A stretch of DNA of 64,000 bases. Origin: a virus (Duplodnaviria; Heunggongvirae; Uroviricota; Caudoviricetes). Positions 33,501 through 60,707 of the stretch are shown piece by piece. The stretch is taken from positions 33,636 through 97,635 of IMG/VR virus record IMGVR_UViG_3300045988_149282. One strand, written 5' to 3'. Numbering within the stretch: position 1 is the stretch's first letter; each line of letters opens with the position of its first letter. The notes under the pieces were generated by a model. The model was not told the origin of the DNA and did no database searches. It worked only from the letters and a program-made list of their open reading frames with translations. Position numbers and translations under genes: made by a program.

Positions 33501-34064
33501 CGTCCGTTTGAGATGAACCCCAAACGTTCGGCTGAAATTAACGTACTCATGACGCGGATGGCGGCTGAAATGGGCTTAGGTGATGAACTAATCCGCCCCA
33601 GCATTGGTATTAAGCCGAAAATCATGATCATTCTGGACAATGCGAACGGCAATGATGCTCGAACCGGTTACTTTATGGAGAACGGATACGACGACTTTAA
33701 GGCCAAGCTATTGACGGCTGGAGATTTACGCATGGGCGATCTCTATGTCACAGGTGTTTGCAAGAAGGTTAAAGACAAAGAAAAAGACTACACCAAAGAC
33801 GAGATCGGCCAGTTCACCGACTTTATGCGTGAAGAGATCAATCTGGTGCGTCCGACCTATGTGCTGACGTGTGGCAGCCGGGCAACTTCATTGTTTAACA
33901 ACAAAAACAAGCCATCCGATTTGGTCGGCAGGAAGGAGTATCTTCCAGACCTTGACGTTACTGTCTTTTACGGGTTTAACCCCAACATTCTTTACTTCAG
34001 ACCTGAAGAGGGAGAACGACTAGAAGCGATATTAACCGACGTAGCAGAAACTATTAAGTCGTGA
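30546..34064 (+). CDS. dnaE: DNA polymerase III alpha subunit (DnaE-like)
   Basis: 1172 aa; N-terminal PHP domain, conserved polymerase core motif GPGRGSSAGSLVAWCIGITNVDP and catalytic PDADLDF. Confidence 0.8.
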   Translation: MKALMVRTDFSLGESALKAENAVKIAREAGYTAVISADSMNIASVIPLQRAAGDDMAVICGVKLNIVDDPTYEHRVKLAKESMRCMESLERGRNYSFTALIKNEQGYRDICELMTVANTREQFYFVPRLSLEQLVSTYAKGNIILLTSDIDSVFQRNDFAKITSSLITAGGKDNFYSVVYPHPTPFYDQINVRAMKVASALKIEPVAFYPAYYESIDDADIKDIAHMVTNNIKIDQPHRLRIPHQRDNAINGRRHLLEALKAFSIRMDVPVTAAMASTTQDTIIDACTWRWHELPPALPKMADDEPATLMKLAVAGLRKRLTTKEFGYTPPASENRVYVERLKYEMDTLTRLGFCGYFLMVRDLMNHSRETGIPVGPGRGSSAGSLVAWCIGITNVDPIRHGLLFERFINPERLDLPDADLDFSQARRHEVIEYLNERYGEDYVAGIPNFTYLGAASALRDTARIYGVESADMAVSKELKNVEDDSLPLEELREQLASLDKYATKYPDAFNAACKLQSLMRGFGRHAAGMIVAGVPLTERTPVERRGDARCIAFDKRYCEAMGLIKLDVLGLATLDLLDSAKRYIKENTGEDINLDAISLEDRKVLDGFAAGYTQGVFQLESGPMRKLLKDLGGGIEPMSFKTVVATTALFRPGPIQSGMLDDYVSVAKGFMTPESLHPVLDELTAETNGVILYQEQTMNATRLLAGFTMAEADGVRKAIGKKDMEKMKSMGEKFIVQAQAGWIDVELEDGTTQRIHRAEHFKCEDGTLKTVEEALEYGAKLPINAVRVTASHPGLSEMKAKEIWTAFEKNGAYQFNKSHSVAYSLISYQSMWLKIHYPAEFFAAALTILGEDKHQGLVKDALTYGIRVLPPDVNVSSNRIEIRTLEDGSQVLYAPFSAVKGCSENGCQAIMRAREKVGGKFESLAQFEEAVEKRACNSRVRESLQKVGAFASIEPGSLPATDPERLRDQAELMGNLVIDAVKASRPFEMNPKRSAEINVLMTRMAAEMGLGDELIRPSIGIKPKIMIILDNANGNDARTGYFMENGYDDFKAKLLTAGDLRMGDLYVTGVCKKVKDKEKDYTKDEIGQFTDFMREEINLVRPTYVLTCGSRATSLFNNKNKPSDLVGRKEYLPDLDVTVFYGFNPNILYFRPEEGERLEAILTDVAETIKS

Positions 34065-40898: not shown

Positions 40899-41433
40899 CA
40901 CCGCTGACAGCATACACAATCAACTACCGCTGATAGCATATCGAGAGTCTATCTCACCGCTCACAGCATACTTTACTCGATTTTTTACCGCTGACAGCAT
41001 ACTTAAGAAATTGCATGAATAATGTGTCCCGGTATGGGTATAACCAGAACAAAATTACCGCTGGCAGCATACGAATGTCTGACATATACCATTAATTACC
41101 GCTGATAGCATATCCAAACAAAAATTCCTCAATAAAACACCGCTGACAGCATACGTTCTATCAGGGAGTAGCAGGCAATAAATGCCTTTCACTACAAGCA
41201 ATCAGCGCAATAGCAATAGAATGTTAGTGAGCGCAAACCTATATGGAATGCACTCTTCGAGGTTAGTAACCACTGGGGAGGTATGACAGAGCATTGAGTG
41301 GTGATAGATGATTTACCGCTCACAGCATACGTTCATCTCACTATACCGCTGGTAGCATATCTTTAACCGTTCACAGCATACTTTTCAGAAAAATAGCCGC
41401 TGATAGCATACATTTCACCGCTGACAGCATATC
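40899..41433. repeat. iteron array (12 copies of ~17-19-bp repeat ACCGCTGA[C/T]AGCATA[C/T]) downstream of repA; incA-like copy-control locus
   Basis: Copies at about 40899, 40926, 40955, 40987, 41056, 41097, 41139, 41313, 41345, 41365, 41395, 41416 with irregular spacing. Confidence 0.75.
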
Positions 41434-42526
41434 AAAGCAGTTTGAGACTATTGGAAAGGATCTCAATCATCTTGATATTTTCAGGCGTCAAATTCTGCGA
41501 AAGTTCGGTTATCTTGTTGATAATGTTCTGTTTGGCATCAATTTCCCCAGCTTTCTCATCTGGTTTTTTGGGTTCGATGTCTTCAGGTTTTGGCGGTGCG
41601 ACTTTGAGTTTTGGATTGCGGCTGTGAATCTGGATATAGATCGACCGCCCACGCTTAATCTCGCTGTATTCGAGATAGCCCAAATCTTGGAGAGCTTTTA
41701 AGCCGTTACGTATAGTCTGATTCTGCGAGCTGACATTCCTGCTACTCAAATTGAGTCGCGCACGCAATCGAGCAAGCGATACCGGCGCAGGCTTGGTAGG
41801 AAGACTTTCGATGAAGGTGTACAGAGCCTGTGCTGTTTCTTTGCGTGGTAGCTTATTGATAACCTTTAACTGCAAAAGAACCTTATGGTCAAAGCGATAT
41901 AGTTCGGCCAGCTTCGGTTCTGCATAGAACACCACCGTATCTTTCTGCTCGTTGTAGTCCACGCTATTGATGAGGTGCACCATCAGAAGCGAGATCTTGT
42001 TAGAGCCGTCGACGTTCTTTTCTTCATACGTTCTCTGGAAAGACAGAGTTGTACGCATGATCTTCAAAAGACTGTTTGTAAGCCGGTCGCGGAGTGTTTT
42101 GCGGATCTGTGACGATGGATAGCCACAAAACTTAGCAAATTTCGTGATGCTTAACTCGACACGACCGTTAGGTTCGCCGTATTCTGCCAGCGAACGCACA
42201 ACGCCCACCCACGTTTTGAAATCATGATCCATGTCGAGACGAGGACCGGTTATCTTGATATCGGAATAGCCTTCAGAACGGGCTACTTCGAGCTGGACAA
42301 GCTCCTTTGAAGCATCAATCTCATTTGGCTTGTTACGTTTACTGTATTTTGTTCCCTTAAGCGTGGGGACGAACAACCCCAGTCGCATCAACGCAATTGG
42401 TTGGACTGTATTGTTGCTATTAGGGACAAGTTCCCCTGTGTACAATTCAAGGGAACCTTCTTCAAAGTTGTCGATGTTATCTTCTACTTCTTTGTTATTT
42501 TTACCTTTTTTATTTTTTGTGGACAT
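41432..42526 (-). CDS. repA: plasmid replication initiator RepA (iteron-binding)
   Basis: Gene bracketed by iteron arrays; basic Lys-rich N-terminus; start set at ATG 42526 (MSTKNKKG) because the track extension to 42646 runs through the upstream iterons. Confidence 0.65.
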   Translation of the reverse strand: MSTKNKKGKNNKEVEDNIDNFEEGSLELYTGELVPNSNNTVQPIALMRLGLFVPTLKGTKYSKRNKPNEIDASKELVQLEVARSEGYSDIKITGPRLDMDHDFKTWVGVVRSLAEYGEPNGRVELSITKFAKFCGYPSSQIRKTLRDRLTNSLLKIMRTTLSFQRTYEEKNVDGSNKISLLMVHLINSVDYNEQKDTVVFYAEPKLAELYRFDHKVLLQLKVINKLPRKETAQALYTFIESLPTKPAPVSLARLRARLNLSSRNVSSQNQTIRNGLKALQDLGYLEYSEIKRGRSIYIQIHSRNPKLKVAPPKPEDIEPKKPDEKAGEIDAKQNIINKITELSQNLTPENIKMIEILSNSLKLL

Positions 42527-42545
42527 GTGGACACCTTTGTCATTC

Positions 42546-42651
42546 AACCGCTGACAGCATACTTGATTTGCCGCTGACAGAATACCAAAAACAGTTGGCA
42601 GCATACGGTGAACCGCTGACAGACTATCAATTACCGCTGACAGCATACATG
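42546..42651. repeat. origin iterons (5 copies) upstream of repA
   Basis: Copies at about 42546, 42570, 42594, 42611, 42631 of the same ACCGCTGACAGCATAC repeat. Confidence 0.7.
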
Positions 42652-42683
42652 AACATGGCTTCAGACCAGTCGTGGCGCGGCTT

Positions 42684-42765
42684 ACAGCGATCGGGGATCT
42701 TATTTGATCTATACAAGGATCTATCTATGGATCTCTTTATTAGGATCTATCCTGTGGATATGTGA
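42684..42765. promoter_or_regulatory. GATC (Dam-site) cluster with DnaA-box-like sequence; part of replication origin
   Basis: Six GATC within ~60 bp (cgatcg, ggatct x4, tgatct) followed by cctgtggata resembling a DnaA box (TGTGGATAA). Confidence 0.55.
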
Positions 42766-42847
42766 ATAATTAAAACAGGCATTTACTACCTTCGGCGCAC
42801 CTGGTGGGTTATCGTTGCCTCGGCTAACAATCACAGAAAAATGACAT

Positions 42848-57880: not shown

Positions 57881-58474
57881 ATGATTGCAGCCGAAAAAAT
57901 CAAACAGCGAAAGCGCGACAACTCTCTTCGTGACCTCTGGAGAACACCTGACTGGCTGTTTTCTGCCATTCAACGTTATCTTGGAGTGACATTTGATGTT
58001 GACGTTGCCTGCAACAAGGACAATGCAAAGCTGCCTAATTTCATAGGCGTTGAGCGTGATGCTTTGAAATCTGAATGGGGACAGCCAGGTACAATTGCCT
58101 TCCTCAATCCACCCTACTCCAAAATCTACCCCTGGATTGATGCGGCTATACGTGAGCAGGCTCGCGGAGTTACAACAGTGATGCTAATTCCTCAATCCCT
58201 CGATACAAAGTGGTATGAGCGTGCAACAGAGTGTGCGAATGAGACGATTATTCTGTCTGGTGGCCGCGTAGCGTTTGTCGAGCCTGACGTAAATCTGGGT
58301 CAGGTAGAAGTAAACATCAACCCAGGTGGCAGTATGCTCGTTGTTTTTCGAGGATTCTGTCAGGACGCTGGGCACTCTATAAGCAAGATCCCTTTGGACG
58401 TCATGAAAAGTCTGGGAGGGTATGATCCTGCGAATGTGATCAGGAAAAAAAGACCATCAAAGAAGGCTGCTTAG
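57881..58474 (+). CDS. dam: phage-type DNA N6-adenine methyltransferase (Dam family)
   Basis: 197 aa; WRTPDWLF motif and catalytic NPPY tetrapeptide typical of phage Dam-family MTases. Confidence 0.7.
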   Translation: MIAAEKIKQRKRDNSLRDLWRTPDWLFSAIQRYLGVTFDVDVACNKDNAKLPNFIGVERDALKSEWGQPGTIAFLNPPYSKIYPWIDAAIREQARGVTTVMLIPQSLDTKWYERATECANETIILSGGRVAFVEPDVNLGQVEVNINPGGSMLVVFRGFCQDAGHSISKIPLDVMKSLGGYDPANVIRKKRPSKKAA

Positions 58475-58496
58475 TTTGTTCTGGTGTCTGTAATTA

Positions 58497-58553
58497 GCCT
58501 GCTTCTGTATATATAAATAACTACATATTAATTATTAATATACGGAAGAAGGC
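58497..58553 (+). terminator. long-stem hairpin terminator (copy B of duplicated element)
   Basis: gcctgcttctgtatatataaataa...atatacggaagaagg with T tract; first 24 nt identical to copy at 13365. Confidence 0.55.
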
Positions 58554-58659
58554 TGTTTTGTATCAGAGACTCCAGACCTGAACATCACTACAGAATCCAC
58601 TAGAACCCCTTCCCAGACGCTTTAAAATCGATTTTATGAACCACTTTAAGGAAACCAAC

Positions 58660-58890
58660 ATGTCATACCCGACTAATGTCGTTGCGCTCGTAGAGAGCGA
58701 TTTTCTGGCCCAGGCTCGTGAAATGATGAAAGATCGTGAGCAGGCTTTCAACTTGTACGAATGGGCAATTAAGTGCTTGCATCTTGGCGAGCATCGCGAA
58801 CTTGTTGAACAGCTTTTAGGTGAGTTGATCAATGAGGTGTTTGCCTTGAATGTTCAACTACATGGTAGAGAAAATAATCAATCACAATGA
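58660..58890 (+). CDS. hypothetical small protein
   Basis: Start chosen at ATG 58660 behind AAGGAAACCAAC (track start 58636); helical, no motif. Confidence 0.3.
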   Translation: MSYPTNVVALVESDFLAQAREMMKDREQAFNLYEWAIKCLHLGEHRELVEQLLGELINEVFALNVQLHGRENNQSQ

Positions 58891-59473
58891 TAGATAAGTA
58901 CAAACTATTCATAAAGTGAATTGTAAGTGCTAAGATCTGATAGTTTCCAGTCGTAGACTGGAGACTCGACCTGATGGGTGGGGGTAAGCGTCACTGGCGT
59001 CAGGTTTAAAAAAGCTCACTACCAGCGTAGAACTGGTGCCGTTTAGGTGTCGGGGAAGGGGGAACCAAAGTGAGCAGAGACAAGGGTCACTTTATGATTG
59101 TCGAGTCTGGGGTGTTTCGAGAGGTTGAATCCAGTACTCCCCTTCATAAAGTGTGGGAAGATCTCGGTTCTGGGGTGCTGTCATCCATAACTTCCCAAGT
59201 CTAAGCTGGCAGTAGACTTAGACCATAACTTTTCAGGTTATGAAACGACCAGGTTGGTGAGAGATTTTTATACTCACCTCCCTGGGAGAGTATTACCTGA
59301 AAAGACAACCTCTCACTTCGTTCGAGGTGAACTTCACTCACTTCGTTCGTTCAGTTCAGGTTTATAAAAACCTGTTCTGGGAAGTAATTTGTTTATTTTA
59401 ATAATTATTAACACGCACGCGTGTGCGCACGCGCGAGGAAAAAATCGGCGCGGCGCTTGATTCAGGAGTTTAT

Positions 59474-60064
59474 ATGACGACGAAGACACCAGCCCGATCG
59501 CAAGCAAAAACTCGCAAAAAAGCCAAAAACAAAAATTCTCCCCGCACCAATCCCACAACGCCTGTCGTAGAGTTCAATCCCCAGCTCAAAACCGTGAAAA
59601 TCTTTAGTGATGGCTCTTGCCTTAAAAATCCGGGTGGCCCGGGCGGTTACGGTATCGTTCTCCAGTATCGTGGTGAGGAACGCGAATTCTCAGATGGTTT
59701 TCATAGCACCACCAATAACCGCATGGAGATGATGGGGGCACTTATCGGGCTGGAGCGTTTGAAATATCCATGCAACGTTATTTTGCACTCTGATAGCCAG
59801 TATCTGAAAAACGGCATGACACAGTGGATGAAATGGTGGAAACGCAATGGATGGATGACTTCTGACAAAAAACCGGTAAAGAATGTTGATCTGTGGAAGC
59901 GTCTGGATGAGGCCGCAAGTCGACATAATGTTCGCTGGAAGTGGGTTAAAGGTCACGCCGGGCATCGTGAAAATGAAATATGTGATCGACTCGCGAAGAT
60001 CGCAGCTTTTTCAGCAGCAGATATGCCTCACAAGAAAGATATTGGTTTTGTTTATAACAAATAG
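59474..60064 (+). CDS. rnhA: ribonuclease HI
   Basis: Collinear with E. coli RNase HI ([50 protein letters not shown]); start at ATG 59474 behind AGGAG (track start 59423 adds an unlikely N-terminal extension). Confidence 0.85.
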
Positions 60065-60212
60065 TAAGTAAGTGTTTACCTATCATTTCAAATCATGTAT
60101 CTTATCGGCGTCAGGATGACAATGTGTTGGTAAGACACAGTTCCAGGATGGAACGAGAAAGGCGGCTGGCAATCGCCAGCCGCAACTCTTTCTGACACTG
60201 GATGGAGTCCAC

Positions 60213-60707
60213 ATGGCACGTCAAACCTATTTCACTTCTGTAACTAAACGTCCTCGTTCTTTACGTCAAATTTTGGCCGAATTATTTAGCGGTCGTGTTA
60301 TGTCACGTCTTGATGAACTAGAGACTACCGTTCGGTTGCTGAATGAACGTTTAGATAATCAAGCGTCAGTTGTTGCGAACGTGGGGGCGATTGTTGCCTC
60401 TGGTTCTTCACGCGAAGCGAAAAATGCACGGCCTTTAGTGAAGGAGAAAAACAACAAGGACAGTTCGAATGGAAAATTTTCAAAGAAAGAGGCTGAAACC
60501 AATGGCCTACGTTCTCATTATAGTTTCACTGGCGACGGTAGCCGTTCCAGCCGGTCAGAGCCTTTTGATGCCGGATTCATCCATCACCACACCTTCGTCG
60601 ACGACAATTACCACCACTCCAGTGGAGCGTCCTGTCACTCTGGATGGGATGGCGGTGGATGCGATACCTCAACTTCATCCAGTTACTCAGGATCATGCTG
60701 TGACTAA
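60213..60707 (+). CDS. hypothetical protein with Ser/His/Cys-rich C-terminus
   Basis: 164 aa ORF with RBS; C-terminal low-complexity region containing HHH and CxxxxxxC patterns. Confidence 0.35.
   Translation: MARQTYFTSVTKRPRSLRQILAELFSGRVMSRLDELETTVRLLNERLDNQASVVANVGAIVASGSSREAKNARPLVKEKNNKDSSNGKFSKKEAETNGLRSHYSFTGDGSRSSRSEPFDAGFIHHHTFVDDNYHHSSGASCHSGWDGGGCDTSTSSSYSGSCCD

Follow-up and report, generated by a model that had tools for sequence, protein, structure and literature searches.

A large pseudoknotted RNA gene upstream of rnhA in SSU5/pHCM2-like phage-plasmids and its possible role in a second replication origin

The DNA analysed here, which we refer to as the window, comprises 64,000 nucleotides (positions 33,636 to 97,635) of the virus record IMGVR_UViG_3300045988_149282 (Caudoviricetes). 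It derives from an SSU5/pHCM2-like phage-plasmid. A 1.7 kb region around the intergenic gap studied here (58891-59473) matches SSU5-group phages of Escherichia, Salmonella and Klebsiella with 77-99% identity, and when the 600-bp gap is taken by itself, 687 PLSDB plasmids of the pHCM2/IncFIB type match it. Situated between a gene for a 76-residue protein and rnhA, the gap lies where the replication and nucleotide-metabolism module ends, and has no annotated feature in the deposited records of the relatives examined. An initial annotation, made from the sequence alone, had proposed for it either a non-coding RNA gene or a specialized site for packaging or recombination. The first proposal is borne out by a conserved promoter, extensive compensatory changes, a G-U asymmetry marking the plus strand and the lack of a coding signal: positions 58928-59388 very probably constitute a gene for a plus-strand RNA of ~450 nt, the existence of which is well supported. 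The features of the locus are as follows.

58660..58890, plus strand: orf76, gene for a 76-residue protein (phrog_5343), always preceding the RNA; the predicted structure is a three-helix protein
58928..58936, plus strand: extended -10 promoter (TG at 58928-29, TAAGAT at 58931-36), with a presumed start at about 58943
58942..58966, plus strand: H0, 5' terminal hairpin (inverted repeat I6), lineage-specific in sequence and present as a hairpin in nearly all lineages
58969..59074, plus strand: 5' domain with H1 (58969-80/58992-59005) and H2 (59015-20/59069-74)
59083..59298, plus strand: central domain of seven helices, closed by H3 (59083-85/59296-98)
Helices of the central domain, first part: H4 (59088-96/59145-53), H4a (59107-11/59130-34), H5 (59154-60/59191-97), H5a (59173-77/59182-86)
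Helices of the central domain, second part: H6 (59199-208/59213-23), H7 (59224-30/59236-42), H8 (59249-62/59273-85)
59119..59127, plus strand: pseudoknot 5' strand GAGAGGTTG, in the H4a loop, pairing with 59306-59314
59306..59314, plus strand: pseudoknot 3' strand CAACCTCTC (inverted repeat I12)
59309..59327, plus strand: 19-mer hairpin top CCTC[TCACTTCGTTC]GAGG, extended to ACCTC[TCACTTCGTTC]GAGGT at 59308-28
59328..59358, plus strand: H10 (TGAACT/AGTTCA; direct repeat D3), with the 11-mer TCACTTCGTTC in its loop at 59338-48
59352-79, plus strand: H11, a lineage-specific hairpin (inverted repeat I7)
59375-87, plus strand: conserved 3' motif TTCTGGGAAGTAA, its CTGGG kept in every lineage, followed by a U-rich stretch
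59386..59410, no strand: AT-rich spacer (A or T in 24 of 25 bases), variable in sequence and length between lineages
59411..59445, no strand: alternating purine-pyrimidine GC tract (59411-35) with the conserved end GCGCGAGG (59431-38) and an A-run (59439-44)
59474..60064, plus strand: rnhA, encoding RNase HI, a neighbour of the RNA in most but not all lineages

The gap is the best conserved stretch of its neighbourhood. In a region-by-region comparison with SSU5, pJN2-26 and a Salmonella Newport plasmid its core is 86-94% identical, as against 60-77% for dam, orf76, rnhA and orf164. From position 58965 onward the relatives are 87-92% identical, compared with 77-80% for the whole 1.7-kb neighbourhood including the flanking genes. 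This conservation is not that of a protein. As stated by the initial annotation, no open reading frame (ORF) of at least 60 codons exists in 58891-59330 on either strand, the longest having 44 (59070-59204, plus strand) and 46 codons (59201-59341, minus strand). Substitutions favour none of the three codon phases and show no 3-nt periodicity, and the small ORFs differ between lineages, so that protein coding was rejected. A type I toxin-antitoxin mRNA of the hok/sok kind was likewise rejected, there being no conserved small hydrophobic ORF.

Relatives were gathered by means of a conserved 22-mer, the neighbouring protein, a gapped motif applied to metagenomes, and BLAST. This yielded 18 sequences from five lineages: the main SSU5/E. 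coli/Klebsiella lineage, L106 (82%), L102 (73%), the Cronobacter/Enterobacter lineage (68%), and L104, which is beyond BLAST detection and was aligned by eye and with a covariance model. One further contig (L109, from Logan SRR8137545) was excluded as an artefact of the public collection, since nearly every C reads T in comparison with its close relatives, as in a bisulfite-like assembly. RNAalifold, run on 16 and then on 18 sequences, predicted about 90-100 pairs, with compensatory double changes in 32-35 of them and hardly any broken pairs. The predictions were merged into 13 helices and a pseudoknot with 98 pairs in total, the 5' hairpin H0 being additional. Across the 18 sequences 94.4% of the pair cells are paired, compared with 34-49% when the 3' partners are slid by one to three columns. 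Changes on both sides occur in 45 of the 98 pairs (8-11 in the slid controls), a figure to be read with the restriction that five lineages allow only few independent events per pair; none of 500 shuffles reached the observed values. G-U cells outnumber A-C cells by 201 to 38; in the main group, which is well aligned, the counts per sequence are 7-11 and 0-1. This excess identifies the plus strand, which is also that of all neighbouring genes, as the folded one.

These data bear on the possibility that the locus acts purely as DNA, for instance as a pac or cos site, a recombination site or a cruciform/Z-DNA element, in which case the pairing would reflect single-stranded or extruded DNA. We regard this as highly improbable. 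Fourteen helices and a pseudoknot over 450 nt, together with the G-U asymmetry, fit an RNA made from one strand, and the conserved promoter is placed exactly at the 5' hairpin. The packaging or recombination site of the initial annotation found no support, as the element is single-copy and internal to the replication/nucleotide-metabolism module; its position in the linear SSU5 record is about 78.5-79.3 kb out of 103 kb, far from the ends. What speaks for a DNA-level role is that the top of one hairpin also occurs inside protein-coding genes of other phages (see below), where such a role would be natural, that one contig (L207) carries the 11-nt loop of this hairpin inverted relative to its flanks, and that the alternating GC tract is Z-DNA prone and varies in length as if by slippage.

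In the 5' domain, H1 is paired in 99.5% of the cells and shows changes on both sides in 7 of its 12 pairs, while H2 (95% paired) encloses two short helices and the conserved G-rich sequence GGGGAAGGGGGAA. H4, H5-H5a and H6-H8 of the central domain are 96-100% paired, and H6 is compensated in 8 of 10 pairs. The lower value for H4a (75%) comes from the misalignment of one clade by MAFFT. The hairpin cataacttttcaggttatg noticed earlier at 59224-59242 is a true helix (H7), compensated in other lineages. The short repeats of the initial annotation were also recovered: TCTGGGGTG occurs at 59106-14 and 59169-77, and TTCATAAAGTG does have two copies (58908-18 and 59143-53), the shared length being 11 rather than 12 nt as the first copy begins with 'a', not 'c'. 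Rather than being binding sites for a protein, most of these repeats supply strands to helices of the RNA. The heptamer UCUGGGG occurs three times in the RNA. Three long-range pairings (58962-70/59100-08, 59187-97/59378-88 and one between G-rich and C-rich segments) were left out of the model, being either invariant or lost in the Cronobacter clade.

The pseudoknot, 9 bp in the window, ties the loop of a central hairpin to the 3' region and is the strongest single evidence for a tertiary fold. It has 8-10 contiguous pairs in every lineage, and both strands are invariant in most sequences. The pairing GAGAGGTTG:CAACCTCTC of the window is compensated in L106 (TGAGAGTTT:AAACTCTCA) and L102 (GAGAGGTGT:ACACCTCTC) and wholly rewritten in L104 (TTTGGGTTTT:AAAACCCAAA). 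Because its 3' strand shares bases with the 5' arm of the 19-mer hairpin, pseudoknot and hairpin are mutually exclusive.

Both ends of the gene carry conserved signals. TG and TAnnnT of the extended -10 promoter are invariant in our alignment (A1), Cronobacter included. A -10-like hexamer is found 7-8 nt ahead of the 5' hairpin in 14 of 14 listed loci, in most of them with the upstream TG; pJN2-26 and L104 keep the hexamer but not the exact TG spacing. A simple promoter scan missed this element because the -35 region is poor. Transcription would start near 58943, with H0 serving as a protective 5' hairpin; the stem of H0 is clear in nearly all lineages and weak in the Cronobacter clade, and an invariant CTCG (58965-68) follows it. 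Towards the 3' end, the stem of H10 is compensated in the Cronobacter clade and L104 (GAAACC/GGTTTC, CAAACC/GGTTTG). The region up to 59388 is the probable 3' end of the RNA. A scan of this boundary in the window revealed no canonical intrinsic terminator. A weak CC..GG hairpin with a U-rich stretch follows the RNA in most lineages and is better formed in the Cronobacter clade, where a terminator-like ACCCA-UUC-UGGGU with a U-rich stretch is succeeded by a new promoter.

The RNA belongs to a new family. Searching the whole window against Rfam 15 (4227 models, among them RNAI, tmRNA, RNase P, group I/II introns and c4) at the gathering threshold gave only three tRNAs at 21.2-21.5 kb, and no RNA family matched in the gap; with E values of up to 10 on 58400-60300, the only match inside 58900-59400 was a chance one to mir-375 (E 6). 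ARAGORN found no tmRNA. The tRNAs form part of a four-tRNA cluster at 21229-21856 (Asn-GTT, Tyr-GTA, Thr-TGT, Ser-TGA), the last of which was called by ARAGORN only. A covariance model of the H4-H7 domain (R1) has one copy in the window and, among 75 sources, matched SSU5-like loci only. The scan for the neighbouring protein in genome contigs added two Kluyvera loci only, and the gapped-motif scan of metagenomes returned close relatives plus two chance matches (L145, L159). The 76-residue protein family comprises 40 clusters, all at least 61% identical and confined to Enterobacteriaceae. The RNA family was thus found only in SSU5/pHCM2-like phage-plasmids of Enterobacteriaceae, a narrow distribution, and the covariation data come from five lineages. 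Literature searches for an SSU5/pHCM2 non-coding RNA, for origin mapping and for the hairpin sequence gave no relevant description.

The gene downstream of the RNA differs between lineages, being rnhA, a Tad2-like gene, a gene for a 200-residue protein without assigned function, or a small RNA unit with its own promoter. In the window it is rnhA, as the initial annotation had said, and its product is an RNase HI (Pfam RNase_H, 9.8e-45); the gene starts with the ATG at 59474 rather than 59475. The SSU5 deposited annotation places the start still further upstream, within the GC tract region. Ahead of the Pfam domain the protein has a 39-residue basic extension rich in Lys, Arg and Pro (59474-59590), which possibly binds nucleic acid. 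A Cronobacter plasmid has kept the core at about 68% and has no rnhA behind it. Where rnhA is absent, Tad2-like genes (PF11195, anti-Thoeris family) occur directly 3' of the RNA and small-RNA pair (L102 3598-3912, L110 3431-3742, L099 4105-4416, L004 3529-3840); the window has none immediately 3' of the RNA.

This variation is relevant to a reading of the RNA as a cis-acting 5' leader, which by regulation or processive antitermination would govern read-through into rnhA and beyond. Its orientation is that of all downstream genes, the promoter lies directly upstream, no canonical terminator separates the RNA from rnhA in the window, and the mutual exclusion of pseudoknot and 19-mer hairpin is switch-like. 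Leaders, however, normally accompany one gene family, and the Cronobacter clade has interposed its terminator-like hairpin and new promoter. To our knowledge, bacterial leaders and put-type elements are far smaller than ~450 nt with 14 helices. We consider a leader function unlikely.

A second conserved non-coding unit was observed just past rnhA, at 60075-60192 of the window; in lineages without rnhA it lies directly 3' of the large RNA. It has a promoter (-35 TTTACC, 17-nt spacer, -10 TATCTT) and two hairpins with AGGAT loops (GTC/GAC at 60110-20 and GTTCC/GGAAC at 60140-54), and is closed by an intrinsic terminator at 60162-83. The second stem is compensated in other lineages and the GGA is invariant. 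The unit looks like a small RNA of ~83 nt of the CsrA/RsmA-binding type, the match to CsrB being weak and partial (E 0.099).

Between the large RNA and rnhA lies the AT-rich spacer with the GC tract. The initial annotation had taken this for an AT-rich promoter region; no convincing sigma-70 promoter was found, and a more fitting view is that of an AT-rich spacer separating the RNA from the conserved GCGCGAGG-A(n). The tract itself was correctly described: 59411-59435 reads acacgcacgcgtgtgcgcacgcgcg, a perfect purine/pyrimidine alternation of 25 nt, with cgcacgcg at 59414-21 and 59426-33 and ACGCGT at 59417-22. Formation of Z-DNA by it is plausible. When 160-nt windows are drawn at random from phage DNA, less than 0.1% contain an alternating GC run of at least 12 nt. 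All relatives have the tract in variable length (8 nt shorter in pHCM2, a longer run in L106), and only its 3' end, (Y)GCGCGAGG plus the A-run, is constant in nearly every lineage; L102 has CACGCGAGG without an A-run. Since the GCGCGAGG-A(n) end is kept in lineages lacking rnhA, the tract goes with the RNA and its AT-rich spacer and not with the ribosome-binding site of rnhA. A phage-wide promoter or operator was rejected, as neither the GC motif nor the loop motif was found elsewhere in the window.

The 3' part of the RNA contains the 19-nt hairpin top CCTC[TCACTNCGTTC]GAGG. Its loop UCACUUCGUUC is displayed twice, in two successive hairpins. A search of IMG/VR with the 19-mer CCTCTCACTNCGTTCGAGG gave, among the matches listed, more than 40 extra loci where ~3 were expected by chance. 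The carriers among these matches are unrelated contigs of 25-60 kb, and the 19-mer is mostly the top of a longer hairpin, the lower stem of which varies in sequence while complementarity is kept. The consensus in the unrelated contigs is CCTC[TCACT(A/T)CGTTC]GAGG. Literature searches disclosed no published description of a recurrent 19-nt hairpin, and BLAST of three of the contigs (L171, L172, L205) against isolated phages gave no match. Aeromonas T4-like phages, the sole match to a short hairpin query, have 2-4 near-copies, of which the one examined is intergenic. The loci referred to are listed here.

L171, 5270-5394: 19-mer within a phrog_678 O-like initiator gene, with a gene for a DnaC-like loader behind it
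L176, 9111-9238: the same arrangement as in L171
L203: 19-mer within a phrog_391 O-like gene
L183, 2597-2765: 19-mer within a phrog_1408/16167 initiator gene
L025, 6246-6353: 19-mer within a phrog_1408/16167 initiator gene
L172, about 1480-1610: five or six 11-bp iteron-like repeats, an AT-rich block and two such hairpins; the most abundant type among the matches listed
L219, 701-723: a further hairpin locus

The window hairpin is identical to that in L171, L176, L203, L183 and L025. The copies in initiator genes are always in the same frame, encoding PLT(T/S)FE, and are located in the inter-domain linker after the N-terminal domain. The origin of phage lambda is carried at the same place of its initiator (PMC12663957). 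Direct repeats are found just upstream of the hairpin in all four loci examined (L171, L176, L183, L025); in L171 and L176 the last repeat ends about 27 nt ahead of it, and L171 has repeat families of 2-3 copies with at least four iteron positions in total. Within 160 nt downstream of the hairpin, alternating GC runs of at least 10 nt are present in 3 of 11 unrelated contexts, compared with a background of 0.006 per window. A fourth context has an 8-nt GC run downstream, and no run of at least 8 nt was seen upstream of the hairpin. By its sequence context, the GC tract of the initial annotation appears to belong to a hairpin module that is common to unrelated phages. In the window, the AT-rich region (59386-59410) starts 59 nt past the 19-mer hairpin.

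It is possible, if rather doubtful, that this hairpin is a module for recognition of protein or RNA, reused in several contexts, and that the RNA has nothing to do with replication. The RNA would then act in trans as a ribonucleoprotein scaffold or as a decoy for host or phage factors, in host takeover, anti-defence or lysis-lysogeny control. Such a function would agree with its own promoter and stabilizing 5' hairpin, the high conservation and elaborate pseudoknotted fold typical of other large ornate RNAs, the repeated loop motifs (UCACUUCGUUC twice, UCUGGGG three times) and the U-rich stretch past the conserved 3' motif, which could end the transcript. The strictly linked 76-residue helical protein could be a partner, and the neighbours across lineages include Tad2-like genes, a Dam methylase and the second small RNA with its CsrA-type GGA loops. 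A non-homologous but equally structured sequence in the same slot of contig L107 can also be counted here. On the other hand, the window shows no enrichment of sequences complementary to the loop motif. A trans-acting role would also leave unexplained both the conserved AT-rich spacer and GCGCGAGG-A(n) downstream and the recurrence of hairpin and GC tract at origin positions of other phages.

The L107 slot (Logan SRR28417476, 2726-3437) lies between the 76-residue protein gene and two tandem RNase H genes. Its sequence has no detectable similarity to the window RNA and no match to Rfam or to model R1, yet its fold is very stable (z = -5.1). It begins with a -10-like element and a 5' hairpin and ends in an AT-rich tail of ~110 nt. 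It may be a non-homologous RNA with an equivalent job.

Our preferred reading, which we put forward tentatively, is that the RNA is a component of a second, transcription-driven vegetative origin and is processed by the adjacent RNase HI. The transcript would run from about 58943 through the two hairpins displaying the loop UCACUUCGUUC and then enter the easily melted AT-rich stretch and the GC tract ending in GCGCGAGG-AAAAAA, where it would form an R-loop by remaining hybridized to the template. RNase HI, whether that of the adjacent gene or that of the host, would trim the hybrid at the purine run to yield a primer, which the element's own DNA polymerase III alpha subunit, DnaB-like helicase and DnaG-like primase would extend. 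The folded domain with its pseudoknot would compete with the origin hairpin for the same bases and thereby decide whether the hybrid forms. The distance from the promoter (58928-36) and the presumed start to the A-run (59439-44) is about 500 nt. In favour of this reading are the occurrence of the 19-mer hairpin in initiator genes and beside iteron-like repeats of other phages, the GC tracts found downstream of it there, and the placement of the locus in the replication module beside rnhA. A replicon for the plasmid mode is found elsewhere, at 41.0-42.8 kb (41052-42769), and consists of the following features.

41432-42646, minus strand: gene for RepA (Rep3_N WH1 domain)
41052-41433: seven 22-nt iterons ACCGCTGnCAGCATA
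42708-51: three repeats containing GGATCT
42753-69: two adjacent DnaA boxes

Given this plasmid-mode origin, a second origin at 59 kb would parallel the oriR/oriL pair of P1. Several observations weigh against an origin at the RNA locus. GC skew, positive throughout and hence uninformative as an origin marker, does not switch at 59 kb, DnaA boxes are no more frequent around the element than expected by chance, and 58850-59500 contains no iterons but only short two-copy repeats. Nothing like the antisense regulator RNA I emerged from scanning the RNA (58942-59388) for promoters and terminators: on the minus strand the sole promoter-like site (58949 to 58920) lies at the very 5' margin and is directed outward, no terminator-like site is present, and Rfam gave no RNAI match. 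The link between the hairpin and origins in other phages is read from its position, and there are copies that precede ordinary genes or adjoin terminators. In L104, where both RNA and pseudoknot are retained, the 19-mer no longer has its CCTC/GAGG hairpin form. The RNA has no rnhA next to it in the Cronobacter/Enterobacter and L102 lineages (counted as three lineages). Finally, the weak hairpin and the U-rich stretch after CUGGG could halt most transcripts before they reach the AT/GC region.

A variant of the origin model, which we think distinctly unlikely, assigns recognition to the RNA itself. The H4a loop GAGAGGUUG would pair also with the DNA arm CAACCTCTC and open the hairpin, a task that in other phages would fall to an iteron-bound initiator protein; an RNA initiator would thus replace the O-type protein and iteron module. 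Covariation is blind to the difference between RNA-RNA and RNA-DNA pairing, and the variant is therefore compatible with the evidence.

If the locus is an origin as we propose, the vegetative origin of the SSU5/pHCM2 group would be identified, and there would be a point of access to copy-number jumps and induction. Replication controlled by RNA folding would then be known from a second, independent case outside the ColE1 plasmids. Clinical E. coli, Klebsiella, Enterobacter and Salmonella commonly harbour SSU5/pHCM2-like phage-plasmids, and some phage-plasmids carry resistance genes. Irrespective of function, it is rare to find a large pseudoknotted RNA that has no Rfam entry and surpasses its whole neighbourhood in conservation, and the RNA is a good target for structure determination. 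The hairpin and GC tract at origin positions of many unrelated uncultured phages lead to the testable prediction of a shared step in replication initiation. As a separate observation, the window contains a low-GC island at 22000-25000 (0.34-0.35 versus about 0.46) with reversed GC skew; the 442-codon ORF on its minus strand (22956-24284) may be a recently acquired cargo gene.

Compared with the large ornate RNAs ROOL, GOLLD, OLE, HEARO and raiA, the RNA is of the same size class (hundreds of nucleotides) and shares with them many covarying helices, a pseudoknot and residence on mobile elements. It differs in that none of their covariance models matched (58400-60300 with E up to 10, the window at the gathering threshold), in not being located beside tRNAs, and in its very narrow taxonomic range. 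With lambda-type origins the locus has in common the 19-nt hairpin top and the adjoining AT-rich region. The window hairpin, however, is without surrounding iterons or an initiator gene, is embedded in a structured RNA, and has its 5' arm taken by the pseudoknot.

P1 is a phage-plasmid in which a plasmid origin with RepA and iterons is separate from a vegetative origin, oriL, which is situated within repL and depends on transcription across it. In T4, the origins oriF and oriG consist of a promoter and a downstream unwinding element that holds an R-loop. The arrangement described here, with RepA and iterons at 41-42.8 kb and a candidate second origin at 59 kb, resembles that of P1. We know of no large folded RNA at P1 oriL, nor of a conserved RNA structure needed by the T4 origins, whereas the element described here has about 100 covarying base pairs.

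In ColE1 the RNA-DNA switch lies about 500-550 nt past the start of the preprimer RNA II, which is cleaved by RNase H and extended by DNA polymerase I, and the folding of which decides on hybrid formation. Here, too, a promoter is situated ~500 nt upstream of a purine run behind GC-rich DNA, the transcript is long and structured with alternative pairings that could decide on the hybrid, and an RNase HI gene follows immediately. Differences are the absence of sequence or Rfam similarity and of an RNA I-like antisense promoter or terminator within the RNA, and a fold that is a multi-branch domain with a pseudoknot instead of a row of stem-loops. Moreover, the element encodes DNA polymerase III alpha, not DNA polymerase I, and its RNA-DNA switch is putative. 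Lacking RNA I, homology and iterons, it is not a member of the ColE1, P1 oriL or T4 origin types; the RNA with its AT-rich and GC-rich tail would instead represent a new form of RNA-linked origin architecture.

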